DNA from: a virus
Taxonomy: Duplodnaviria > Heunggongvirae > Uroviricota > Caudoviricetes
Reading direction: 5' to 3' (one strand)
IMG/VR virus record: IMGVR_UViG_2698536418_000030
Length of the DNA: 12,058 nt
Of the stretch, positions 1 through 12,058 are shown in pieces (the stretch's first letter is position 1; the number at the start of each line of letters is the position of its first letter). The translations under genes and the position numbers were made by a program. Below the pieces are notes generated by a model. That model worked only from the letters and a program-made list of their open reading frames with translations. It was not told where the DNA came from and ran no database searches.

Positions 1-1248
1 ATGCAGGAAACGGTAAATCAGGCTTCTGGCGCATTACAGAAAAACCAGAACGGCGCGGATATTCCTGATAAGGATCGCTTCCTGAGTAACATTAATGTTT
101 ACAGCAAAGGCGAGGTGGATAAGAAAAAAGGAATGCGGCAGTACGCATTTAATGCGCCGTCTAATGCAATTGGTGGAAAGTGGTATCCAGTTATTTTCCG
201 GCGTTCCACAGGCGGCACTGGCGAGCTGGCTTCCAGAGTGATTATAACGACCACATGTGCCAGTAGTGATTACGCAATGAATAACTGCGAATTCAATGGA
301 ATGGTAATGCCTGGTGGCTGGACTGATCGTGGTTCATATGCGGCAGGTTATTTTTCGACGTATCAGACTAATGAGCGCGCAATCCATTCCATTGTAACAA
401 GCCTTAAAGAAGATGATGTATGCAGCGTTTTTTACGTTGAAGGCAGGGCTTTTCCTGTGCGGGTTTCTGCTGAAGAAGGGCTAACGGTTATTGTTCCAAC
501 TCAGGATTATACTGTCGGTCAAACAACATATAAGTGGGGAGCAACTAATCCCGCGACAGAAAGCACGAACGCACAAGCCATTCTGGATTTTAACAATGGG
601 CGAGGGTTTTATTGTTCTCACTCAATACTCGGTATTAATGCCATTTTTAGCGGAAATCTGGGGATTGGAACGGCTAATGCCCTGGGTGGAAATTCAATAG
701 TTTTAGGAGATAACGATACCGGGTTTAAACAAAATGGTGATGGGGTGCTGGATGCTTATGCTAATGGTGTGCATGTATTCCGCTTTATAAATGGTTCAGC
801 AAGATCATTAAAGGGTATTCAGGCTGGGGAAAGTAAGTTCTTCACACTTTCAAGTGCAAATACCGCTGCCCGTAATGCATCATTTAGCTTGTGGGGAAAT
901 TCGTCAAGACCAACTGTTGCAGAGCTTGGTGATGATTCAGGCTGGCATTTCTATAGTCAGCGAAATACAGATAACTCGGTGATATTTGCTGTTAACGGTC
1001 AGATACAACCCAGCAACTGGGGGAATTTTGATTCCCGCTATGTGAAAGATGTTCGTCTTGGTTCACAGCAATATCATGGTGTGAACAACTGGCAAACATG
1101 GAATTTCCAGTGCCCGTCAGGTCATGTATTGTCTGGTATTAATGTTCAGGATACAGGGTCCAACTCTGCCGATAATATAGCGGGCGTTTATTACAGACCC
1201 GTTCAAAAGTATATAAATGGCACCTGGTATAATGTAGCGAGCGTTTAA
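1..1248 (+). CDS. Tail fibre protein, alternative variable C-terminal segment (Mu S'/Sv'-like). Probably start-less and expressed only after fusion to the constant 5' part of the tail-fibre gene by inversion; the ATG at position 1 lies inside the crossover site.
   Basis: 415-codon ORF running to the window edge. Shares motifs with the C-terminal part of the 2341-3696 tail-fibre protein ([22 protein letters not shown]; C-terminal ..GT.YNV.S.). Nucleotides 2-24 match, in inverted orientation, the inner end of the crossover site plus flank at 3160-3199 (20 of 23). Followed 1 nt later by a tail-fibre assembly gene. Confidence 0.75.
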   Translation: MQETVNQASGALQKNQNGADIPDKDRFLSNINVYSKGEVDKKKGMRQYAFNAPSNAIGGKWYPVIFRRSTGGTGELASRVIITTTCASSDYAMNNCEFNGMVMPGGWTDRGSYAAGYFSTYQTNERAIHSIVTSLKEDDVCSVFYVEGRAFPVRVSAEEGLTVIVPTQDYTVGQTTYKWGATNPATESTNAQAILDFNNGRGFYCSHSILGINAIFSGNLGIGTANALGGNSIVLGDNDTGFKQNGDGVLDAYANGVHVFRFINGSARSLKGIQAGESKFFTLSSANTAARNASFSLWGNSSRPTVAELGDDSGWHFYSQRNTDNSVIFAVNGQIQPSNWGNFDSRYVKDVRLGSQQYHGVNNWQTWNFQCPSGHVLSGINVQDTGSNSADNIAGVYYRPVQKYINGTWYNVASV

Positions 1249-1249
1249 T

Positions 1250-1783
1250 ATGATGCACTTAAAGAACATAAAAGCGGGTAACGCTAAAACACTGGAACAG
1301 TATGAGTTAACAAAGAAACACGGAGTTATCTGGCTTTACGCTGAAGATGGTAAGAACTGGTATGAGGCACAAAAAGCCTTTCAGGCAGACACACTAAAAA
1401 TCGCTTACGATGACAGAGGTATCATTCGCTATATTGAAAAAGATGTGTCGTCTATTAACCCGGAAGGAATGAGCGTTGTCGAATTACCCGACACGACAGC
1501 GAATCGCCGGGCCGATATTCTCGGTGACTGGGTGTTTCAGGATGGCAAGGTCATGAAACGCCCCCGGACTGATGAAGAACTACGTCAACTGGCTGAAATT
1601 CAGAAACAGATTTTGCTGCGACAGGCCAGAGAGGAAACGCAGTGCTGGCAAACACAGCTTGCGCTGGGAATTATCAGCGATTCAGACAGGCAAAGACTCA
1701 TTAACTGGATGTTATACATGCAGCAGGTTGATGCCACAGATACCTCTGTTCTTCCTGTAACATTCCCGGAACAACCAGAATGA
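1250..1783 (+). CDS. Tail fibre assembly protein (chaperone), alternative copy (Mu U'-like)
   Basis: 177-aa ORF. N-terminal 50 residues are near-identical to the 1812-2339 product ([33 protein letters not shown]), with a divergent C-terminus. Start ATGATG is 1 nt after the stop of the upstream fibre segment. Confidence 0.85.
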   Translation: MMHLKNIKAGNAKTLEQYELTKKHGVIWLYAEDGKNWYEAQKAFQADTLKIAYDDRGIIRYIEKDVSSINPEGMSVVELPDTTANRRADILGDWVFQDGKVMKRPRTDEELRQLAEIQKQILLRQAREETQCWQTQLALGIISDSDRQRLINWMLYMQQVDATDTSVLPVTFPEQPE

Positions 1784-1786
1784 GAC

Positions 1787-1816
1787 AAGGCCCGCTATCG
1801 GGCCTTAATTTTTATT
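1787..1816. terminator. Hairpin between the convergent tail-fibre assembly genes; likely intrinsic terminator, mainly for the + strand gene
   Basis: AAGGCCCG / CGGGCCTT 8-bp perfect stem (1787-1794 and 1799-1806) with loop CTAT, followed by AATTTTTATT on the + strand. Lies in the 28-bp gap between the stops at 1783 and 1812. Confidence 0.5.
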
Positions 1817-2339
1817 CAGGCTTTTGTGGCCATTCAGGATTTGCCGTATCCACACGGCTGACCAGAACACTGTAGCGTTCCCATGACTCCAGTCGTGCGC
1901 GTTCCTCATTAGTTGCCATATTCAGCCTGACAGCACGTTCCAGCGGTTGAATCACAGACTCCGCTTCGGAAAGCAAAGCGGCTTTTTGTAACTCTGCCTG
2001 CTGTTGCAGCTCCTGTTTTGTATATTCCCGCTTTACTACTTTACCATCCAGAAACATCCAGTTTCCGTTATTGTCTGCGCGACGATTTGCCGTAATATCG
2101 GATACTTCAACAACACTTAAACCTTCCGGGTTAATAGTTGAAACATCTTTGCTTACGGTAACAATCACATTATTTTTATCGTATGCAATTTTTATAGTAT
2201 CTGGTTGAAAGTTTTTTTGTTCTTCGTACCAGTTTTTACCATCTTCAGTATAAAGCCAGACCACTCCAGCTTTTTTGGTTAACTGGTATTGTTCAGGTGT
2301 TTTGGGGTTCCCTGCTTTAATGTTTTTTAAATGCATCAT
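1812..2339 (-). CDS. U: Tail fibre assembly protein (chaperone), Mu U-like
   Basis: 175-aa ORF. Start ATGATG is 1 nt after the stop of the tail-fibre gene. N-terminus conserved with the 1250-1783 product. Size and position match Mu U. Confidence 0.85.
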
Positions 2340-2340
2340 G

Positions 2341-3696
2341 TCAAATACTCACAACGTTATAATATGTCCCACCAATCAACTTCTGAATAGGCCTTCTGGT
2401 TAATGTATCAATAAATTCATCGGTGTTGCTGTTTCCGGCTGCGGTCAGAACATATCCAGAAGTATCCCAGTAACCAGGGCCTCGCCATGCTGATATTGAT
2501 TCTGCGCTACCAAGTCGAATGTCTCTTACATATGTGCTATTGAGATAATCAGCTAAATTTGAACCCCAACACCCGCCAAATATATTTCCATCGGTGTTAT
2601 AAATGATGCCACCCGCAACAAGAGCACCCGGTGAAATAAAAGATTTATCGTTCGGGTTAAACTGCCATAAAGCATCATTACCGCCATCGCCACGCATATG
2701 AATACATGGAACCGGAAATCCATACTGTTCTGTCAGCAAATAACCAAAGCTGACCGCGCCGGGATAGCCCTGTCCATTGCGAATGGACAAGCCCTTAACT
2801 ATCGGCACGTAATGACCACCAGGAGTGGGATTCCAGGCAAACTGCGTCTGAACAAAAGGCGCGGTGGCATTATTCAACTGGTCTGCAAATGCGCCACTTC
2901 CATCAGGAATTATTCCCTGAGGAATGTATGCAACCCGCTTATAAAAATCAGCAGATGCGGGTTGAAGCCCAAATGCCAGTTGTCCATTTGAATAGAATAA
3001 AAGGACACCGTCTCCGCCCTGTTTAATACCAGTGTCGTTATCTCCGAGAGTAATGGAATTACCACCCAGTGCATTATCGGTATCAACGCCGAATGCAGAT
3101 GTCTGTGGTAGATTCAGTTTTCCGGTCATTGTATCGCCAGAACGCTGAACAGCGTTACCAGCCTTGTTTACCGTTTCCTGTAAACCGAGGTTTTGGATAA
3201 ACAGCGGCTTATTGGGAATATCTGCTCCGTTCCGGTCTTTTGCCAGACGGGCACTGGCATTATCCATCGCAATTTTCACCGCTTTTGCGGTGGCTGCCAG
3301 CGTTTCACTGGGGCTGTCAGTGGCACTGGTTAGCTGAACGAGTCCTTTTTTGTTCAGGCTGGCATCATAAATATCCAGATTTTCACGTGCTGTACGCTGT
3401 GCTGATGCCCCGGCAGTTTTAATTTCGCTGAGGTTATTTTTTATCAGCAGTGCGTTATTGCTCATAATGGCTTTAATGGATAGTGCAAGCTGGTTTAATT
3501 TTGTTTTATCCGGTTGAATACCGGCTTCTTCCAGCGTGTTTAATAACTCCGCCTGCACAATATTAAACCAGTCCATGCCGGGCCATGTGATAACATTATT
3601 CCCGTCACCTTCTGAAAACCAGCGAACGATAGCACTACGCTGGGCGGATACGGGCGGCATGACGGTTACGCCGCTGTCGTTATCAATATAAAACAT
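2341..3696 (-). CDS. S: Tail fibre protein (Mu S-like): constant N-terminal part (about 3201-3696) fused to a variable C-terminal part (2341-3174) through the in-frame crossover site
   Basis: 451-aa ORF. The 26-bp gix-type site at 3175-3200 is read in frame as IQNLGLQET. Start ATG overlaps the stop of the upstream gene (TAATG). C-terminal region has fibre-like Gly/Asn/Thr-rich repeats shared with the 1-1248 segment. Confidence 0.85.
3175..3200. other. gix-type site-specific recombination (crossover) site of the tail-fibre cassette: TTCCTGTAAACC-GA-GGTTTTGGATAA
   Basis: Two 12-bp imperfect inverted half-sites around a 2-bp core (GA at 3187-3188). Matches the Gin/Hin/Cin/Pin (Din family) crossover-site pattern as I recall it. 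Located exactly at the constant/variable junction of the tail-fibre gene. Confidence 0.8.
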
Positions 3697-4238
3697 TAGT
3701 TATCTCCGTCATGGTAAACAAATTTATAAATCTGATGCGCGGGTTTATATTTCTCCAGTAAACATTCCAGCGCACCCGATTCATAAACACGTAACGGCGT
3801 CAGAACATTATCCAGCACCGTTGCGTTGCGATAATTTTTAATACCGTAAATATTGACCTGCGTAACCCACTGGCCTTCTGTGGAATCCGTCAGCCTGACG
3901 GTAAAACCGTACTGCGCAGCCAGCCATTCATAAAAGCGCCGACTCAGATTGCCGGTCATACGCATTTTATTCGCGGCAGCCCGCTGGCGTTCGGACAGGG
4001 TGCCGTTTTCGCTGGTACAGTCCGGCAACCCCAGAAATGATTCCCACCCCCCCAGATACCAGCGGGATGTGGACGGGAAACGCTCCCGCAGCATTTGCCG
4101 CGCATCATCCGCCGCAGTGGCAATCACGTCGCTGATGGCCTGCGCCAGCGCAGATAATTTGCTGTCGGGGCTTTTATTCCAGGCAAGCCCTGACGGCAGT
4201 AATTGCAGAAAGGCCGTCTGATAGGGTGTTACAGCCAT
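3696..4238 (-). CDS. Phage tail/baseplate protein (Mu gp48/R-like; DUF2313/YmfQ-like, P2 gpI-like)
   Basis: 180-aa ORF. Start overlaps the stop of the next gene by 10 nt. Position immediately upstream of the tail-fibre gene and size match Mu R. Family assignment is from memory of gene order, not from a search. Confidence 0.75.
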   Translation of the reverse strand: MAVTPYQTAFLQLLPSGLAWNKSPDSKLSALAQAISDVIATAADDARQMLRERFPSTSRWYLGGWESFLGLPDCTSENGTLSERQRAAANKMRMTGNLSRRFYEWLAAQYGFTVRLTDSTEGQWVTQVNIYGIKNYRNATVLDNVLTPLRVYESGALECLLEKYKPAHQIYKFVYHDGDN

Positions 4239-5311
4239 TCAATTGTCCCCGGTGTTAACAGTTCCGTATTCTCCGAACGCTGGATCTCTGTCGGGAAACG
4301 CACTTCAAAATCATCCAGACCGGTAACACCTGCCACCGCACGGATAATACGGGAGGGGGCAAGTGCGCCGCCCGGCGTCACCTCATTAAAAAACATGGTA
4401 TTAATGGCGTGGGTAATAGCCTGTTTCAGTTCGGCTGTCTTCGGTGATATATAAATCCGTGGATTTACCGGCTTTGCCTTTGGCGCAAATACAGTGACAT
4501 TTACACCGTCAGGCTGTCCGACAATCAGACCGGTGATCGGGTCAGTATGACCGGCGATATAATCCGCCACGCGTTCCACGTCTGCCGGTTGTGGAAAAAT
4601 ATTGCTCCGGTTATCCATAACAAACGTCACCCCGACTGTGCCACCGCCTTTCCATGTCGGAAAACACCAGGCACGGGTAACGCCGCTGACTTCACGCGCC
4701 CAGCGAACATAATCAAACTGATTACCGCCGAACGGAGGATACTGGACACGATATTCCAGCCGTGACAGCAGCTCCGCTGCACTCTCAATATCAGCCCCAC
4801 CGGAAAACCCTTTTACAGTGATGGCATCGGAAACAACACAGGCAACCGGGGTGATCAACGTTAAAAGGGTATTCTCACCGGTATTTCCTGCTTCACCGGC
4901 AGCCAGTGCGGTAACGGTAATTTCCGTCGTTCCTGCACGGTCAATCACAATGGCATCAGCCAGGCTGTAAACCACACCATCAGCACGCTGCCAGCGTGTA
5001 CCGGCAGGAATGGTGGTCGCTGCCGATGTGGTGACAGTCAGCGGGCCGCTGGCGGCTGTCGCCTGTTTGCGGCGCACGCCCCAGAACCGGCAGTGCTCCA
5101 GCAACTCATCTTCATCTGCTGTCGACGGGATAATCTGCCGTCCAACCCATGAAATATGCTCGTGACAACCGGCAGCAAGGCCCGCCTGAGCATAAGCAAT
5201 GGCACTCAGCGTTTTTTCACGGGCCTGAGGCCAGCTACCCGGCAGGCGCTGTTCAATATTCTGTTCTGTACGGGCAATCAGCGATGATAATGTCGGTGGT
5301 GAATAAGCCAT
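4229..5311 (-). CDS. Baseplate J-like protein (Mu gp47/W-like)
   Basis: 360-aa ORF tightly packed in the tail operon. Size and order match Mu W / P2 gpJ-type baseplate wedge protein. Confidence 0.75.
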   Translation of the reverse strand: MAYSPPTLSSLIARTEQNIEQRLPGSWPQAREKTLSAIAYAQAGLAAGCHEHISWVGRQIIPSTADEDELLEHCRFWGVRRKQATAASGPLTVTTSAATTIPAGTRWQRADGVVYSLADAIVIDRAGTTEITVTALAAGEAGNTGENTLLTLITPVACVVSDAITVKGFSGGADIESAAELLSRLEYRVQYPPFGGNQFDYVRWAREVSGVTRAWCFPTWKGGGTVGVTFVMDNRSNIFPQPADVERVADYIAGHTDPITGLIVGQPDGVNVTVFAPKAKPVNPRIYISPKTAELKQAITHAINTMFFNEVTPGGALAPSRIIRAVAGVTGLDDFEVRFPTEIQRSENTELLTPGTIEWL

Positions 5312-5749
5312 TTAAACCCCGTTAAATGCTGCTTTAAACTCATAAGGAATAACGGAACCATCCGGTAATGTCAGTGCAATGTAGAGGTATAACCAGCCCT
5401 GATGTAACTGTTCCGCTCTGACGTTAATCGCACTTACCCGGCCCGCTGTTTTCAGCCATTCCAGCGCCTCTTCGGCATACCCTCTGGCGCGTTCCAGCGT
5501 ATCCGGTGTGGCTTTTTCACGTGATAACAGCCACAACCGCGAACCGATGGGGCGGTCGCGGTAACTGTCACCCCACCATCCACGGCGATCATCTGAACCA
5601 TCCGGCAGCGTGTCAGAATCCAGCGCGCGCCGGTCTGTAAACAGGGAGATTGTCACATCGGTTGTCAGGCTGTCGTCGGTCAGCATATCAATGCCATCCT
5701 GTGCAATATCGCCGCGTCCGTTCGTCCAGATAATGGCTAAATCGGTCAT
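5312..5749 (-). CDS. Baseplate wedge protein, GP46/gp25-like (Mu gp46/V-like)
   Basis: 145-aa ORF directly abutting neighbours. Size and order match Mu V. Confidence 0.75.
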   Translation of the reverse strand: MTDLAIIWTNGRGDIAQDGIDMLTDDSLTTDVTISLFTDRRALDSDTLPDGSDDRRGWWGDSYRDRPIGSRLWLLSREKATPDTLERARGYAEEALEWLKTAGRVSAINVRAEQLHQGWLYLYIALTLPDGSVIPYEFKAAFNGV

Positions 5750-6339
5750 TGCATTGGCCCCGTGGTTCCGCCGCTGTCGCCACGGTGGATATGCTTATCC
5801 GTCGATTTGCCATTGATGATGGCATCCGGGGCAGTAATATTGCTGTCGAACTGGCTTTTACCTTTAACGCCCAGACCTTTCTGGATCTCAACGTCGCCGG
5901 TAAACGTGGTTCTGGGTGTGTCAACGGTCATACTTTCATCAGCGTAAACCTCAACCGTTTTACAGGTAATGATGCAGCGTCCGTCCTTTGTCAGCCTGAT
6001 ACGATGCCCCTCGTGGTGGTAAATGCCTGCATCACCCGGTTCAAGATTTGTCGGGCGGTAGCGGCGGTCTTCCACCACAACGGCAATCCCCTGATCACGT
6101 TGTGCGCCTACACAGGCAATCAGCGCCTCTGCTCCCGGCAGGGGAACGCTGAAATGCCCGTAATTTTGCAGGCGCTCCACTTCATCAGATTCCTCATCAT
6201 CCAGCAGGCCGACCTGCAGGTTCTGAACCTTTCGCCCGTCGTTAATCACGTTAACAACAGCGCGCGCAAGCATCAGGCGCACACGACGCATCAGCGGCGT
6301 CAGCAGGCGGTTCAGGGCGAAATCATTTACTCTTTCCAC
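5746..6339 (-). CDS. Baseplate assembly/central spike protein (Mu gp45/Q-like, P2 gpV-like)
   Basis: 197-aa ORF with 4-nt overlap to the downstream gene. C-terminal glycine-rich segment (..KGLGVKGKSQFDSNITAP..GDSGGTTGPMQ) is typical of spike proteins. Confidence 0.75.
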   Translation of the reverse strand: MERVNDFALNRLLTPLMRRVRLMLARAVVNVINDGRKVQNLQVGLLDDEESDEVERLQNYGHFSVPLPGAEALIACVGAQRDQGIAVVVEDRRYRPTNLEPGDAGIYHHEGHRIRLTKDGRCIITCKTVEVYADESMTVDTPRTTFTGDVEIQKGLGVKGKSQFDSNITAPDAIINGKSTDKHIHRGDSGGTTGPMQ

Positions 6340-7466
6340 GGCGGCGTTTTCTCCGGGTGTCTGCGATAATAATCTTCAACCAGCGCATCAATACCGCCGT
6401 TACTGTCGCCGCCTTTCCTGTTTTTACGGTCGCTTTCAACCGGCACCAGAAAGCCTTCGCGTGGTGCAAGGCTGACGCGGGTTTTCAGCCCGTCCTGGTC
6501 ATTCAGTATCAGGGTGACTTTGCTGACCAGTAATTCCGTGGTTTTGATGGCATATTTCGAGGCATCAATAGTGACCAGCAGGTTCGGCATCCAGAGTTGC
6601 CCGTCCTTGCGAGTCCATCCGTCAATTTCAGCCTCAAAGGTGATGGATTTTGCCAGTCTGCGGCGTTGCTCACGCAGGGCGCGGGCCTGTGCATCCTTCG
6701 CCGTAATTTTGCTGTCAGCAATGATGATCATCGGTCTGTAACGGGTTACATCACTGTCAGTGGCGGTCCCTTTCCGGGAGACGATACTTTTCGCATCAAT
6801 ATCATCACCCTCAGCACCGTTTGCGCGGGCATACCCCTTGACGGTGTATTCGCTGAACCGGTCGCGGAAGTCTTCCTCAAAATCCAGTGTCAGCAGATTT
6901 TCTCCGAGAACCAGCTCATCAGTGGCTGTGCTGGCAGCCCGGCTGAATACCAGCTCTCCTGCGGCATTGCTGGTCATCAGTACACCGCGTGCGCGGGAGG
7001 CACGCACCAGCGCCTCATAAACGGTTTCTGAATGGTCCAGCGTGAAGCCGGGAAAAGCTGCCGAACTTTCCTTATCGGAAAGCTCCCAGCGAACGGTAAC
7101 GCCATAAGGAGCGCACAGGTCACGCGCAATCTGCTCCAGTGTGCGGTTTTTCCACTGTCCGCCACTGTAAACGGCAGCACAGTCAATCAGGTCAGCCGTT
7201 TTGTCACGTCCGGCGATAGTGATTTTCATGCTGTCAGCGGTCATCTGGCGTCGCCGCGAATCGATATAACCGGTGCAGACAATCTGCCCGTCGATTTCCA
7301 GCGTGAACGCCTTCCCCGGTGCCAGCCCGGATAAATCTGTACCCGGTGGCACATTCACCCCCAGCTCAAAATATCCGGCTACGGATTCAATGGAGCGGGT
7401 GACAGAGACTGACGTCCAGCCGGTAAAAAGCCTGCCATCCGTTCGCAGCGTGACGGTATTACTCAT
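6327..7466 (-). CDS. Baseplate hub / tail protein (Mu gp44/P-like, P2 gpD-like)
   Basis: 379-aa ORF. Overlapping start/stop with neighbours. Size and order match Mu P. Confidence 0.75.
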
Positions 7467-8946
7467 TAATCACCTCAATACTGACACCACCGGGAACAAA
7501 CAACGGGTTGCTGATACCGTTCCTGCGGGCCAGCCGTTGCCAGTTCCGGCTGTTTCCTGTGTAACGGTACAGAGCCACCATTGCAGGCATCGTCTCCGGC
7601 AGGCGGTGCGTTTCACTGCCTGCCAGTTGCAGCCCGCGTTTTTCCAGGTCGGCAACAACCAGCAGACGCAGTTGCGTAAGCTGAACGCTGTCTGTCGAAA
7701 AGCCCTGCTCAGATGCCGTCAGAATGACGGTATCCAGCGCTGCCCCCAGCATGGCGGCTGTTTTTCCGATATCGGACACACTTTCAAATACCGGGGGCGT
7801 GGCTGTACCACTGTCTGAAAAGGATACCTGTGAAAAGCCGCCGTCCGGGGTTATGGCAGTTAACTGTAACTGTCCCTGTGTGACGGTAGCGGATGTGCTG
7901 CTGGCCCCGCTGGCTGTGCCGGTTGTGGTGGACGGGGCATCCAGTACAGGTGCACGGGCGGCATTATCCATCCGGCGACTGAAATCCAGTGCCGCAGTCA
8001 GTGCCTGGCTTGCTGCCTCCGCCCGGTATGTCTGTGCTGCTGCCAGCATGACGTAGTTCAGTGTGGCAATATTTTTTTCTGCAACCGGACTGTTGTACGA
8101 GGTTGTGATTGTCCCCTGTCTGCCTGCGGTGGCGGCATGGCGACGTTCGAATCGCTGCGCCAGACGGTTCCATGTGGAAAATGCTGTCCGGGTATCGCAT
8201 AACGATGAAACGCCGGACAGCGCCCCCATCAGCGAGGAGGCCAGCATGGCAGGCTGGTTAATCAGGCTGGTCACAGAGCCTTTCATCGCAGAAAGCGATC
8301 CCATCAGACCGCTGACAGTCTGCGTAACCCCCAGATTGTCCACCGCATCACTGATATCATCGATGACACCGGTTACAGCTTCCATCACGGCGGTTGCCGC
8401 CGCAGTGCCATCTTTTACGGTCTGCCAGACAGAGGACAGCGTATCTCCCAGAGAACCGGTTACAGCAACGGCCTGTGCCGGTACGGCTGCACTGGTGTCT
8501 GTCTCTGAGTCCGGGGCAGTATCCTGCAACGACGGATAAACGGTAACGGTGAACGCGTAATAATTCAGTTCATCCGCTTTAGTGCGGCATTCCCATGAAT
8601 CCACCATGACGTCCACAGTGCCGAAATCAGGATGTACCAGCTCACCGCTACCCGGAGCATCAAGAGCATCCATCAGCGCACCCGCTTCATCTCTGGCTGT
8701 TTCTGCGTTGCTGTTCAGAATGCAGGCGCTGAATGTACGGGAGCGAAGCTTTTTCCCCAGGTCATTGACGCCGCCGGTATCACGTAACGGGTACTCGCGT
8801 TTAACCAGGCGACGTCCGCCAGCCTGTTTTTGCTCCTCGATGACGAGAAACGGCACGTTACGAAACGTGCCTTTGCCGGTTGTTTTCTTACCACCGCTGA
8901 TTTTATCCCGGACAGCATTAACGGCATTTAAAGCATCTTCAAACAT
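7459..8946 (-). CDS. Mu N-like tail protein (DNA circularization protein family)
   Basis: 495-aa ORF immediately downstream of the tape-measure-like ORF and upstream of the baseplate hub gene. Size and order match Mu N (gp43). Confidence 0.7.
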
Positions 8947-8950
8947 GGTT

Positions 8951-10279
8951 TTACCAGCCTGTAATGTAGTTATCGCCCGCGTAAATATTCAGCCCCATAC
9001 CGTCCTCGGTGACGCGGGAACTGGTCAGACGTAACCCCTCGGCAAGTTCGACGCGCAGCGAGGCTTCCGCATTCACTTTTTGTTCCTGCGGTTCCTTATC
9101 CGGGGCCGTCCATTTCTGATACAGGTCGGTTACAAAACCGCCCAGATACTCCCCGGCGACACTGCCCAGCGTGGCACCGGCAACCGTACCCAGCGGTCCG
9201 GCAAGGCTGCCAACGGCACCGCCGAGCCATGCACCGGCTGTACTGCCAATTGCGCCTGCTTTTTCATGGGTTGACGCCTGCTCATCCATCAGGACGGGGG
9301 CAAGCTGGAGTGCCCCCATTACTGGGCCACCCAGACGTGACAACACACGACCGGCACCTTTCCCCATCCAGCCCAGCGCCCCGGCACCTTTTGTCACAAC
9401 CCGACCGATCGCACTGCCTGCAAGTTTGTTTCCGATACCGGAAAACCACCCGCCAACAGCACGCCCGGCATCAGCCAGCTTTCCGACCGTTCCCGTAACC
9501 AGTTGCCCGGCAGCACTGCCTGCAAGCCTGCTCAGAAGACCGGATTTACCGGGTAAAGGTAATGGTGCAGGCCGTGCTGTTACCGGTACGCCGGGTGGGG
9601 GTAATGCCAGTACAGGGCGTGGTGCAGGTAATGCCAGCGGCTGTGGCCCGGACAGCAATAACGGCTGGCGGGGTAACAGCGGGGCCATTCTTCCGCCGCT
9701 CCGTCCGCGACGACCGCCGCCACTCCCGTAGCCACCAAATCCACGGGGCCAGTTGATGACAAACACACGCTGAATGCCGATACCCTGCAACAGCGTCTCA
9801 GACGTCATGGCATCCGGGACCGGCAGACCTGCCTGCCCACGTTTGCGGTTTCGCATCCAGCGCCACATACGACGCCCGGTTTTAAACGGATAACTGGCAA
9901 CCTGCCATGAGGGTTTTGCCACGGCCCAGCCTGCTCTCAGGGCTTTATTGGCAAGCCAGACAGACACCAGAACAGCAGCCAGTTTTTTCAGGCTGACAAT
10001 ATTCTGGTCAACCCATGCCAGCGCATCTTTACCCGGTTTCAGCCAGCGCCATAATTCCTGCGCCGCGATTTTTACCGTTCTGAACGTGGTCAGAAATTTC
10101 TGACCAATGTTTTCTGCCAGTGCGTCAAGTTCCCCGGATTTATCCGCCATGTCGTGCCAGTTAAGCACCCGGCGCATCTCGTTCTTGATTTCTTCAAAGG
10201 GGCCGCTGTTTGCCACCTTTATGCGAAATTCAAGCAGGTTAGCTTCCATCTGGGCGAACATCCCGTCCCAGGAGTTCAT
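8951..10279 (-). CDS. Phage tail tape measure protein, C-terminal portion. Likely 5'-truncated: the frame stays open upstream of the first ATG to 10471 and ends at a TAA inside the gix-like site.
   Basis: 442 aa from the first ATG. Contains a hydrophobic segment, a Pro-rich linker ([34 protein letters not shown]) and long glycine-zipper repeats ([20 protein letters not shown].., GxxxG pattern) typical of tape-measure C-terminal halves. Position upstream of the N-like gene. Hand translation of 10280-10471 gives 64 further sense codons with no start codon. Confidence 0.65.
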
Positions 10280-10467
10280 CGCACTGGCCTGTGCACCTTT
10301 TGACTGTTCTGACAGCGTTCTGAATACCGTCAGAATGGATTTCAGACCCAGCTTGCCTTTTTCACCTTGTTTGCGGATATCCTTAACGTCTTCTTTACCC
10401 AGTGCATCCGCCAGCGTCTGGTAAACGTTAATACCGTAACCGGTCAGCAGGTTGGCATCCGCCGCCG

Positions 10468-10493
10468 TGATTTAAAACCGAGGTTTTAGATAA
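10468..10493. other. Second gix-like recombination site, immediately upstream of the invertase gene: TGATTTAAAACC-GA-GGTTTTAGATAA
   Basis: 20 of 26 identical to the site at 3175-3200 in direct orientation, with the same GA core (10480-10481). The gin-proximal half GGTTTTAGATAA differs from the 3175-3200 outer half by 1 nt; the distal half is more diverged. Lies 55 bp upstream of the invertase GTG start. Confidence 0.7.
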
Positions 10494-10547
10494 TGGCTGT
10501 TTCCGGCCTGCATGGCATGATTTGCGCTTTTAAACGGGAGATCCAGA
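10494..10547 (+). promoter_or_regulatory. Invertase 5' leader with ribosome-binding site; the promoter probably overlaps the adjacent crossover site
   Basis: GGGAG at 10536-10540, 7 nt before the GTG start at 10548. In Mu the gin promoter is said to overlap the adjacent gix site (from memory). No clear -35/-10 pair identified by eye. Confidence 0.3.
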
Positions 10548-11141
10548 GTGCTGATTGGCTATGTAAGGGTATCAACAAATGACCAGAATACAGACCTGCA
10601 ACGAAACGCTCTTGTTTGTGCAGGATGTGAACAAATATTTGAAGATAAATTAAGCGGAACAAGGACAGACAGACCTGGATTAAAACGCGCTTTAAAGCGC
10701 CTTCAAAAAGGTGACACACTTGTTGTCTGGAAACTGGATCGCCTCGGGCGAAGCATGAAACATTTGATTTCTCTCGTAGGGGAATTACGAGAGCGAGGGA
10801 TTAATTTTCGCAGTCTTACTGACAGTATTGATACGTCATCTCCAATGGGGCGTTTTTTCTTCCACGTTATGGGTGCCCTGGCTGAGATGGAACGAGAACT
10901 AATCATCGAGCGAACGATGGCTGGACTTGCTGCCGCCAGAAATAAAGGCCGTATTGGTGGGCGACCACCTAAACTAACCAAAGCGGAATGGGAGCAGGCC
11001 GGGCGTTTATTAGCACAAGGAATCCCCCGCAAGCAGGTTGCATTGATCTACGATGTGGCCCTGTCAACTCTGTATAAAAAACACCCCGCGAAACGAACGC
11101 ATATAGAAAACGACGATCGAATCAATCAAATCGATCGGTAA
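10548..11141 (+). CDS. gin: Serine recombinase DNA invertase (Gin of phage Mu; Hin/Cin/Pin family), GTG start
   Basis: 197-aa product MLIGYVRVSTNDQNTDLQRNALVCAGCEQIFEDKLSGTRTDRPGLKRALKRLQKGDTLVVWKLDRLGRS.. carries the resolvase/invertase catalytic N-terminal domain (serine in VRVST) and a C-terminal helix-turn-helix (GRPPKLTKAEWEQAGRLLAQGIPRKQVALIYDVALSTLYKK). Essentially the Gin/Pin sequence as I recall it. Followed by com and mom. Confidence 0.95.
   Translation: MLIGYVRVSTNDQNTDLQRNALVCAGCEQIFEDKLSGTRTDRPGLKRALKRLQKGDTLVVWKLDRLGRSMKHLISLVGELRERGINFRSLTDSIDTSSPMGRFFFHVMGALAEMERELIIERTMAGLAAARNKGRIGGRPPKLTKAEWEQAGRLLAQGIPRKQVALIYDVALSTLYKKHPAKRTHIENDDRINQIDR
10566..10635. promoter_or_regulatory. 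Probable Fis-dependent recombinational enhancer (sis-like) inside the 5' part of the invertase coding sequence
   Basis: GGTATCAACAAATGACC (10568-10584) resembles the Hin enhancer proximal Fis site GGTGTCAACAATTGACC (recalled). A second G..N13..C candidate lies about 48 bp downstream (10618-10632). Both sit about 95-150 bp from the centre of the 10468-10493 site, as in the Hin/Gin systems. Confidence 0.4.
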
Positions 11142-11223
11142 TACAGATCGATTATGTCTCAATAACCACACTCAACCCATGATGTTTTTTAAGATAGTGG
11201 CGAATTGATGCAAAGGAGGTGAG
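11105..11223 (+). promoter_or_regulatory. mom operon control region: Dam-methylation (GATC) cluster, T6 tract and weak promoter, then the com ribosome-binding site
   Basis: Three GATC sites within 35 bp (11115-11118, 11133-11136, 11146-11149). TTTTTT at 11185-11190 followed by TAAGAT. AGGAGG at 11213-11218 before the com ATG. Matches the known Dam/OxyR- and C-dependent organisation of Mu Pmom. Confidence 0.55.
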
Positions 11224-11412
11224 ATGAAATCAATTCGCTGTAAAAACTGCAACAAACTGTTATTTAAGGCGGATTCCTTTGATCACATTGAAATCAGGTG
11301 TCCGCGTTGCAAACGTCACATCATAATGCTGAATGCCTGCGAGCATCCCATGGAGAAACATTGTGGGAAAAGAGAAAAAATCACGCATTCTGACGAAACC
11401 GTGCGTTATTGA
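11224..11412 (+). CDS. com: Com, zinc-finger translational activator of mom
   Basis: 62-aa product [41 protein letters not shown].. with a C-x2-C..C-x2-C zinc finger. Matches Mu Com as recalled. Strong ribosome-binding site. Overlaps the mom start. Confidence 0.95.
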
Positions 11413-12058
11413 GTATGAAGGCCAGATTGTTGGCTATGGTTCAAAGGAGCTGCGCGTTGAAACCATATCTTGCTGGCTGGCCCGCACAATTATTCAGACA
11501 AAGCACTATTCCCGCCGTTTTGTGAATAACTCTTACCTCCACCTGGGAGTATTCAGCGGACGCGATCTGGTTGGCGTTCTCCAGTGGGGATATGCCCTTA
11601 ACCCCAACTCAGGTCGTCGTGTCGTGCTTGAAACGGATAACCGGGGCTATATGGAGTTGAACCGCATGTGGCTACACGACGACATGCCCCGCAACTCTGA
11701 ATCACGGGCCATCAGTTATGCACTGAAAACCATAAGGTTACTGTATCCGTCAGTGGAGTGGGTTCAGTCTTTTGCAGACGAACGCTGCGGACGTGCTGGC
11801 GTTGTGTATCAGGCGTCAAATTTTGATTTTATTGGCAGCCATGAAAGCACGTTCTACGAGCTGGATGGTGAGTGGTATCACGAGATAACGATGAACGCGA
11901 TTAAACGCGGTGGACAACGAGGCGTGTATTTACGGGCTAATAAAGAGCGTGCCGTGGTGCACAAATTTAATCAGTATCGCTACATCAGGTTCCTGAACAA
12001 GCGAGCAAGGAAGCGACTAAATACCAAGCTATTCAAGGTTCAGCCATACCCTAAGTGA
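11363..12058 (+). CDS. mom: Mom, DNA adenine-modification protein (anti-restriction). Start assigned to GTG at 11363; the frame is open from ATG 11333.
   Basis: ORF in the +2 frame overlapping the 3' end of com. GGAG at 11352-11355 lies 7 nt before GTG 11363, giving a 231-aa product, the Mu Mom length as I recall it. No ribosome-binding site precedes ATG 11333. Ends at TGA 12056-12058, the window end. Confidence 0.85.

Follow-up and report, generated by a model that had tools for sequence, protein, structure and literature searches.

Programmed DNA inversion has a textbook example in the G segment of phage Mu, which has been described since the late 1970s and 1980s. The C segment of phages P1 and P7, served by the invertase Cin, is similarly built, with a serine invertase, inverted sites in the fibre gene and two tips with their chaperones, and the P segment of e14 (Pin) and the B segment of Shigella boydii (PinB) are defective-prophage versions of the switch, with cross-complementing invertases. 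In the Min multiple-inversion system of plasmid p15B and the R64 shufflon, the latter driven by a tyrosine recombinase, site-specific inversion likewise alters the C-terminus of a surface-recognition protein. In Mu, as in D108, SfMu and the Mu-like Yersinia phages, the gene order is Sc, then Sv and U, then U′ and S′v, then gin, com and mom. Gin inverts the 3-kb G segment and thereby selects S/U or S′/U′, uses Ser9 and needs Fis (PMC3575834; PMC10434027).

Here we describe a window of 12,058 nucleotides, which is the whole stretch of DNA that was analysed and corresponds to bases 79-12136 of the source contig L003 (GCA_001283405.1 CYCB01000036.1). It was compared with five further assemblies of this prophage from E. 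coli, two of them (L001 and L002) in the window orientation and three (L005-L007) flipped. Positions 1-3200 of the window are almost certainly the invertible G segment of an E. coli prophage of the phage Mu family, constituting a two-state host-range switch. The switch is an already known one of ordinary architecture, with the same recombinase and site as Mu.

Fibre genes, cassettes and chaperones

The features of the segment and of its recombination apparatus are as follows.

3189..3696, minus strand: Sc, the fibre's constant N-terminus (~170 aa), which carries the only start codon and is not part of the invertible segment
2341..3186, minus strand: Sv, variable C-terminal part of the fibre, fused to Sc in the window orientation (open reading frame)
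1812..2339, minus strand: U, tail-fibre assembly chaperone paired with Sv (PF02413 Caudo_TAP, E 7.5e-37)
1787..1806, plus strand: terminator-like hairpin between the convergent chaperone genes (8-bp stem, 6 GC pairs, then a T-run)
1250..1783, plus strand: U′, tail-fibre assembly chaperone paired with S′v (PF02413 Caudo_TAP, E 2.9e-28)
1..1248, plus strand: S′v, alternative variable C-terminal cassette, 415 codons, startless (open reading frame)
3175..3200: gixL, crossover site of 26 bp, in frame within S, central dinucleotide 3187-3188
1..9: inner 9 bp of gixR, the gin-proximal crossover site (site positions 18-26), as defined from sister assemblies
10474..10493: reverse complement of the outer 20 bp of gixR, put there by a scaffold join; 10474 is N in the public record
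10548..11141, plus strand in the window: gin, serine DNA invertase with catalytic Ser9 (PF00239 and PF02796)
10548..10720: 5′ part of gin, matching Mu but for 2 differences in the first 170 nt

The prophage is a member of Muvirus in which both the Mu-type tail and baseplate module and the gin-com-mom right end are present: over 3160-10473, the DNA of the tail and baseplate genes shares 96-97% identity with Mu and D108, and Com and Mom were identified by PF10122 and PF25680. The constant part of the fibre carries PF03406 at residues 113-153, and identity to Mu S is 93.5% over residues 1-200 of S. Sv is unlike Mu S or S′; it shares 94.6% identity with the fibre of Tongde, a Mu-like phage of Yersinia, and has relatives at about 80% in the Mu-like Yersinia phages vB_YpM_3/23. 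The segment thus differs from that of Mu in both variable tips, and it also differs in the length of S (451 aa here, 504 aa in Mu), of S′ (586 aa here against roughly 490 aa in Mu, an estimate from Sc plus the 958-nt S′ C-terminal feature) and of the DNA between the crossover points (3,189 bp here, about 3.06 kb in Mu).

A first-pass annotation of this DNA had paired each cassette with its own assembly chaperone, and the matches of both 1250-1783 and 1812-2339 to PF02413 bear this out; U is 81% identical to Mu U, and U′ is 67% identical to Mu U′. The two fibre tips share 31% identity with each other over their C-terminal halves. Pfam scores on S′v were all below threshold (Gp34_trimer, 17.9 bits against a cut-off of 27), and no domain was therefore assigned to it. 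The hairpin at 1787-1806, with a fold energy of -20.9 kcal/mol (z -4.8) and a T-run on the plus strand only, is a putative terminator. A promoter scan of positions 1-3800 yielded 7 sites, as compared to 7.6 in shuffled sequences, and hence no evidence of an internal promoter for the silent cassette.

Crossover sites

The sequence of gixL, TTCCTGTAAACCGAGGTTTTGGATAA, is identical to that of both gix sites of phage Mu, and the reading frame through it is the same as in Mu. On the minus strand it is read as (TT)T ATC CAA AAC CTC GGT TTA CAG GAA, that is, F-I-Q-N-L-G-L-Q-E, which are residues 166-174 of the 451-aa open reading frame at 2341-3696 (minus strand), and its central dinucleotide falls within the Leu170 codon. 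The first-pass reading of the site as IQNLGLQET was right as far as IQNLGLQE, which is in frame, but the T (ACG) lies just outside the site. At up to 3 mismatches gixL had no second match in the window, and there were 0 matches in 200 shuffles.

Extension of the sequence upstream, which the same annotation had advised, recovered the full partner site gixR, TTATCTAAAACCTCGGTTTGCAGGAA, in five sister E. coli assemblies of the prophage, L001 and L002 among them. Of its 26 positions, 24 agree with the inverted 3175-3200 site, and it is the inverted partner on which the proposed switch depended. Within the window itself, 9 bp of this site are found at the start and its outer 20 bp have been relocated to 10474-10493. 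The inverted recurrence that had been placed at 2-24 is real but shorter than claimed, as it is exact only over 4-17 (CAGGAAACGGTAAA), which is exactly complementary to 3167-3180; the longer inverted arms, 4-39 and 3145-3180, match at 75%. While both sites are identical in Mu, here gixR and gixL are distinguished by 2 positions, and one of these changes makes an in-frame TAA.

Only two AAACCNNGGTTT cores occur in the window, which indicates that there are no extra sites and that the switch has two states. The presence of two sites and two states distinguishes it from p15B Min and the R64 shufflon, in which several crossover sites generate many isoforms. A multi-state, Min-like switch operating through further crossover sites inside the segment was considered and rejected, none having been found in the window.

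The silent cassette lacks a start of its own

The open reading frame at 1-1248 might also be read as a free-standing fibre gene with its own ATG, its likeness to 3175-3200 then reflecting shared coding sequence (QETVN...). Its first codon at window base 1 is written ATG, gene callers predict a protein of 415 aa from it, and 12 nt upstream the gin-proximal half-site of sister assemblies contains an in-frame TAA. However, base 1 is A in the source contig only, where it is the last base of an 8-A filler over the gixR core, and is T in the five other assemblies, so that the apparent ATG is a TTG, the Leu172 codon of the fused fibre. This TTG is not preceded by a Shine-Dalgarno sequence and lies inside the site that matches gix at 24/26, the unfused copy of S′v (P0002) is annotated 'partial' by NCBI, and three assemblies encode the exact cassette joined to Sc in a protein of 586 aa. 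We consider a free-standing 415-aa gene extremely improbable, and the reading is refuted in practice.

The same evidence upholds the earlier claim that S′v has no start of its own. That the ATG at position 1 is part of the site was correct insofar as it is not a real start, but the A is an assembly artefact. An upstream in-frame stop together with a ribosome-binding site and an independent start had been named as grounds for abandoning the Mu G reading; the TAA is there, but neither a ribosome-binding site nor an independent start was found, and the Mu G reading therefore stands.

Both orientations exist among E. coli isolates

When a synthetic flipped junction (Sc, site and S′v) was compared with complete E. 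coli genomes, matches ended at 439-492 of 817, leaving the S′v-specific part uncovered. Because no complete genome covered this junction, the flipped state was sought via the protein collection, and it was found there as a 586-aa fusion (P0001) of Sc residues 1-171 with S′v at 100% identity, the very product that the Mu G reading predicts for the opposite orientation of the same prophage. This fibre is encoded by L005, L006 and L007, whose flanks show 0 mismatches over 6,508 bp (left) and 1,577 bp (right) and whose inner 3,189-bp segment is the exact inverse of that in the window, window base 1 being the sole difference. The prophage of L006 resides at the same chromosomal site as those of L001 and L002, adjoining pqiC, and the identical prophage was found at two different chromosomal sites.

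The two half-site SNPs record the exchange. In the window orientation the Sc-side site reads ..ATCC..TTTA.. and the gin-side site ..ATCT..TTTG.., while in the flipped loci (L005-L007) the sites read ..ATCC..TTTG.. and ..ATCT..TTTA.., a reciprocal re-assortment that fits crossover between site positions 6 and 20. Both orientations thus exist, with reciprocal exchange of the half-site SNPs, across isolates rather than within one culture.

Opposite orientations could also be produced by assembler errors at inverted repeats, without biological inversion, and mis-scaffolding around the G segment is evident in three assemblies of this prophage. Yet the flipped state occurs in three independent assemblies from separate WGS record sets (JAAPUD, JHSN, JICA), its junctions contain no N's and carry the reciprocally exchanged SNPs at both ends, and the exact repeat is only 13-14 bp, far below read length. 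In addition, long reads have confirmed inversion of the Mu-type fibre gene in the E. coli prophage CP066032.1 (PMC9881135). Assembler error is thus a very unlikely source of the two orientations, which we attribute to inversion of the segment.

Assembly artefacts in the source contig

In the window, gin stands 10.5 kb away, past the tail genes. It really lies on the minus strand, ~70 bp to the left of window base 1, as its adjacency in L001, L005 and L006 shows. A comparison of the whole window with complete E. coli genomes and phages returned no record with the window's arrangement; the matches all ended at 10473, and gin-com-mom matched as a separate place, which points to a scaffold join. 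The placement of gin-com-mom beside a truncated tape-measure gene is such a join, position 10474 being N in the public record. On extension upstream, the source contig reads TTATCTAAAA-AAAAAAAA-TGCAGGAA, with the core CCTCGGTT replaced by eight A's. These oddities at the edges of the window were introduced by assembly.

If the eight A's in the gixR core and the joining of the tape-measure gene to outer gixR were instead real, an inversion of 10.5 kb, with gixR at one end and a secondary site within the tape-measure gene at the other, together with a genuine 8-A core substitution, would have produced a locked, defective prophage, its host-range switch fixed and its tail module split by an aberrant event at a recombination site. 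The truncated tape-measure open reading frame does abut AAACCGAGGTTTTAGATAA-gin at 10473/10474 in the window and source contig, and the contig opens with gin-upstream DNA followed by the damaged site. Nevertheless, the public record gives N at the junction, and single-N joins also occur, at unrelated places, in sister assemblies of the same series. The intact tape-measure gene runs from GTGATTT, across the point of the join, into GCTGGCGGGC, with no gix-like half-site, and, although exchange by Gin takes place at the central dinucleotide, the join is 6-7 bp away from the centre of the site; on these grounds a Gin-mediated large inversion into the tape-measure gene was rejected. Furthermore, the scaffold contains two copies of the ~70 bp of gin-upstream DNA plus gixR, one with the core intact and the other with the A's, which is contradictory for a single gin locus, and the window departs from the intact prophage at bases 1 and 10474 alone. 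It is therefore highly improbable that the anomalies, or the rearrangement that they would imply, are real.

Proposed mechanism of the switch

The anatomy and gene order of the segment are those of Mu G, as proposed in the first-pass annotation: gixL is in frame, its partner is inverted, Sc lies outside, two cassettes with their chaperones lie inside, and Gin is 99% identical to that of Mu. Gin matches the Mu protein at 192 of 193 residues, starting MLIGYVRVS with Ser9 present, and the region from gixR to the gin 5′ end is about 97% identical to Mu. Positions 10548..10720 make up the 5′ part of gin, in which the Fis-dependent recombinational enhancer of Mu is reported to lie (Kahmann et al. 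1985). As just 2 of the first 170 nt of gin differ from those of Mu, this enhancer has very probably been retained.

By analogy with Mu, Gin dimers would attach to both inverted gix sites, forming a synapse with the enhancer that Fis occupies within gin, after which Gin would cut both sites at the central 2 bp via Ser9, rotate the ends by 180 degrees and religate them. Catalysis by Gin and its dependence on Fis are accordingly expected from the Mu system. The cassettes Sv plus U and S′v plus U′ face each other in the 3.19-kb segment, and inversion would set either Sv-U or S′v-U′ in frame behind Sc and the late promoter. The expressed state in the window is Sc-Sv-U. The gin-facing cassette would be silent because it has no start codon, and in this phage its frame is also closed by the TAA in the gin-proximal half-site. 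We infer that inversion changes receptor specificity; for the Yersinia phages vB_YpM_3, 5, 6 and 23, the LPS core is needed for infection (PMC10434027).

Discussion

The tips carried by this switch have relatives in several kinds of phage. A P1-type phage fibre matches S′v residues 30-415 at 60%, although P1 and P7, which resemble the present system in general logic, belong to a different phage family (Punavirus) and use cix sites and Cin. The 'bcv protein' (its source's name; P0042) is 94% identical to S′v; the e14 and S. boydii elements are remnants without a full Mu-type genome, whereas the sister prophage here appears complete through the tail region. The S′v tip module is also common to P2-like gpH proteins, with 57% identity over the full length to fibres of Peduovirus P22H4 and phage 9W. 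Identity reaches 93-96% in 655-699-aa E. coli prophage fibres with PF12571 N-termini, and residues 1-230 are 56-71% identical to lambdoid side tail fibres. The P2-like and side tail fibres are fixed genes without an inversion switch and have the receptor-binding module alone in common with S′v. Both tips are mosaic, S′v included, as is usual for fibre tips.

For annotation, a 'startless' fibre open reading frame to which gene finders have given an ATG or TTG is to be recognized as a silent cassette, and the gene order and first base of the window are scaffolding artefacts that could mislead downstream analyses. For the phage family, the cassette pair is unlike that of Mu, and the S′v tip occurs almost unchanged in the fibres of P2-like prophages. 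It serves as an example of a receptor-binding module moving between fixed and invertible fibre genes.

Identity of the element and organization of the locus

The element is an actual G segment of a Mu-family prophage, not merely a Mu-like one, and all testable defining features of the Mu-type architecture proposed in the first-pass annotation were present; an invertible segment of this kind is already known. The window (12,058 nt) coincides with bases 79–12136 of NCBI contig CYCB01000036.1 (GCA_001283405.1; L003) and differs from them at one base only: 10474, an A here, is given as N in the public record. Across the tail and baseplate genes, DNA identity with phages Mu and D108 is 96–97%. Below, Sc denotes the constant N-terminal part of the fibre, Sv and S'v its variable C-terminal cassettes, and U and U' their respective chaperones.

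Genes in the window (coordinates, strand, identity)
1–1248, plus: S'v
1250–1783, plus: U'
1812–2339, minus: U
2341–3696, minus: S, the 451-aa fibre
up to ~10473, minus: homologues of Mu gp48 to gp43 and a truncated tape-measure gene
10548–11141, plus: gin
11224–11412, plus: com (62 aa, zinc-ribbon)
11333–12058, plus: mom (241-aa ORF)

The 80-nt overlap of com and mom is likewise present in Mu. Because the window runs from a called ORF start precisely to the stop codon of mom, its edges were set by gene calls and not by biology. In its C-terminal part, the tape-measure protein has a proline/alanine/glycine-rich low-complexity stretch (9400–9760, minus strand).

Crossover sites and the false start of S'v

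The Sc-side crossover site, gixL (3175–3200; TTCCTGTAAACCGAGGTTTTGGATAA), has the same sequence as the two gix sites of Mu; it occurs once in the window with up to three mismatches allowed, and no match to it arose in 200 shuffles. As had been claimed, this 26-bp site lies in frame within the fibre: on the minus strand, (TT)T-ATC-CAA-AAC-CTC-GGT-TTA-CAG-GAA reads F-IQNLGLQE, residues 166–174 of the 451-aa protein, with the central dinucleotide falling in the Leu170 codon. The inverted recurrence noted at the window start is also real, positions 4–17 being exactly complementary to 3167–3180 with arms that continue at 75% across 36 nt, but the window takes in no more than the final 9 bp of the partner site. 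The AAACCNNGGTTT core is found only at 3182 and 10475, so the switch has two states and is unlike multi-site systems.

Extension upstream of base 1, the check originally suggested, recovered the full gin-proximal partner site, gixR. In two sister assemblies with the window orientation (L001 and L002), the upstream sequence reads ...CCATTATCTAAAACCTCGGTTTGCAGGAAACGG, and gixR is TTATCTAAAACCTCGGTTTGCAGGAA, a 24/26 match to the inverted gixL. In these assemblies gin begins ~70 bp to the left of gixR on the opposite strand, the same placement as in Mu. In the source contig, at L003 70–79 and immediately ahead of the window, the eight-base core of gixR, CCTCGGTT, is swapped for AAAAAAAA, and the final A of this filler is window base 1. 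Since base 1 is T in all five other assemblies, where the gixR core is intact, the apparent ATG is really TTG and encodes Leu172 in the fused fibre. The first reading, that this ATG is no real start, thus holds, although its A derives from filler and the ATG itself is false. An in-frame TAA lies 12 nt upstream of the TTG, within the gin-proximal half-site, and the upstream sequence contains no Shine-Dalgarno motif; the silent S'v frame is therefore closed and lacks initiation signals of its own. A stop, ribosome-binding site and independent start together were to count against a startless cassette; only the stop was found. The 415-aa S'v ORF is present on three NCBI contigs, and its unfused copy (P0002) is labelled 'phage tail protein, partial', in keeping with a cassette that has no start.

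Both orientations of the segment

A search with S'v retrieved a 586-aa E. coli 'tail fiber protein' (P0001) consisting of Sc residues 1–171 joined to the entire S'v at 100% identity. It is encoded on three contigs (L005–L007), where Sc-S'v and U' are followed by U and Sv in the opposite strand and these by gin, com and mom; the two predicted orientations of the cassettes therefore both occur across assemblies (L001, L002 and the window versus L005–L007). Base-by-base comparison of the window with the flipped loci gave 0 mismatches in 6,508 bp of left flank and 0 in 1,577 bp of right flank, and the 3,189 bp between the central dinucleotides of the flipped loci are the exact inverse of window 1–3186, base 1 alone differing. 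L006 shares with L001 and L002 a chromosomal insertion point by pqiC, at a spacing of 271 bp in each. Site positions 6 (C/T) and 20 (A/G) distinguish the two gix sites. The window arrangement has C...A on the Sc side and T...G on the gin side; the flipped loci have C...G and T...A, respectively. This reciprocal pattern is expected for exchange between positions 6 and 20, and is consistent with crossover by the serine invertase Gin at the central dinucleotide.

Two E. coli W assemblies, NC_017635.1 and NC_017664.1, match a synthetic flipped-junction query to 482 and 439, respectively, which suggests that the Mu-like prophage of this strain was sequenced in opposite G orientations. The prophage right end is identical (0 mismatches) in L005 (11434–13761) and L006 (11549–13761), but one genome has a PBP1-type gene beside it and others pqiC, consistent with Mu-type transposition to different chromosomal sites.

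Recombination machinery and chaperones

Gin is identical to Mu Gin at 192/193 residues, with Ser9 present, and the region from gixR into the 5′ part of gin is ~97% identical to that of Mu; within the first 170 nt of gin, two positions differ. In Mu, the 5′ region of gin reportedly contains the Fis-dependent enhancer. In the published mechanism, Gin dimers bind gix and, upon Fis activation, make Ser9-linked double-strand breaks followed by 180-degree rotation, thereby selecting S/U or S'/U' (PMC3575834; PMC10434027); long reads have confirmed Mu-type fibre-gene inversion in an E. coli prophage (PMC9881135). Both U and U' match PF02413 (tail-fibre assembly proteins), so that each variable C-terminus is indeed paired with its own chaperone. 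Between the convergent U' and U genes lies a strong hairpin with a T-run after it (1787–1806), a plausible end point for late transcription in at least the S'v-U' orientation.

Scaffold artefacts

A scaffold join puts gin-com-mom past the end of a truncated tape-measure gene, and the order of genes over the rightmost third of the window is consequently an artefact. At 10473–10493 (L003 10546–10571), the tape-measure gene is cut at 10473 and is followed by the outer 20 bp of gixR and then gin. Taken at face value, this break and the damaged gixR core would describe a locked, defective prophage, a reading we regard as highly improbable. The junction base, 10474, is the public N; the intact L001 gene continues as GTGATTT followed by GCTGGCGGGC, with no gix-like sequence in this continuation; and the join lies 6–7 bp off the site centre. 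Moreover, 10474–12058 is the reverse complement of the L001 gixR-gin-com-mom region directly left of S'v, identical save for the N, so that ~70 bp of gin-upstream DNA stands twice in the scaffold, once with the intact core and once with the A-filler.

Besides this scaffold join, the two sister assemblies of the same series carry single-N joins of their own, located in L001 at a conserved fibre repeat (9091) and in L002 within gixL (13196). One of these makes a duplicated gin/partial S'v block; in the other, gixL is linked to a truncated pqiA and the prophage end is duplicated. The short-read contigs thus break at gix and at this fibre repeat, a pattern that suggests a mixture of the two G orientations in the cultures from which they came.

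Fibre tips

Sc is 93.5% identical to that of Mu over the first 200 residues, and U and U' are 81% and 67% identical to their Mu counterparts, but both variable tips are unlike those of Mu. The fibre of Tongde, a Mu-like Yersinia phage, shares 94.6% identity with Sv, and that of vB_YpM_3/23 ~80%; infection by vB_YpM_3, 5, 6 and 23 has been shown to need the LPS core (PMC10434027). S'v is a mosaic, with residues 1–230 resembling lambdoid and 9g-type side tail fibres (56–71%) and residues 212–415 resembling P2/Wphi gpH (~63%); its top full-length phage match is to the fibres of phage 9W and Peduovirus P22H4 (57%).

Long, imperfect inverted repeats lie inside the segment (665–749 versus 3002–3086, 85 nt, 72%; 1195–1411 versus 2178–2394, 217 nt, 75%). 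They arise from a conserved motif common to both tips, ALGGNSI.LGDNDTG.KQ.GDGVL, and from homology between U and U' at the 5′ ends of these genes, and are possible substrates for homologous recombination between the cassettes.

The S'v tip also occurs at 93–96% identity on fixed P2-like prophage fibres of 655–699 aa with PF12571 N-termini (P0019, P0038–P0052); P0042, which likewise carries it, bears the source name 'bcv protein'. This distribution points to a receptor-binding module recently exchanged between invertible and fixed fibre genes. Such modular tip exchange is usual for fibre genes and leaves the kind of system unchanged.
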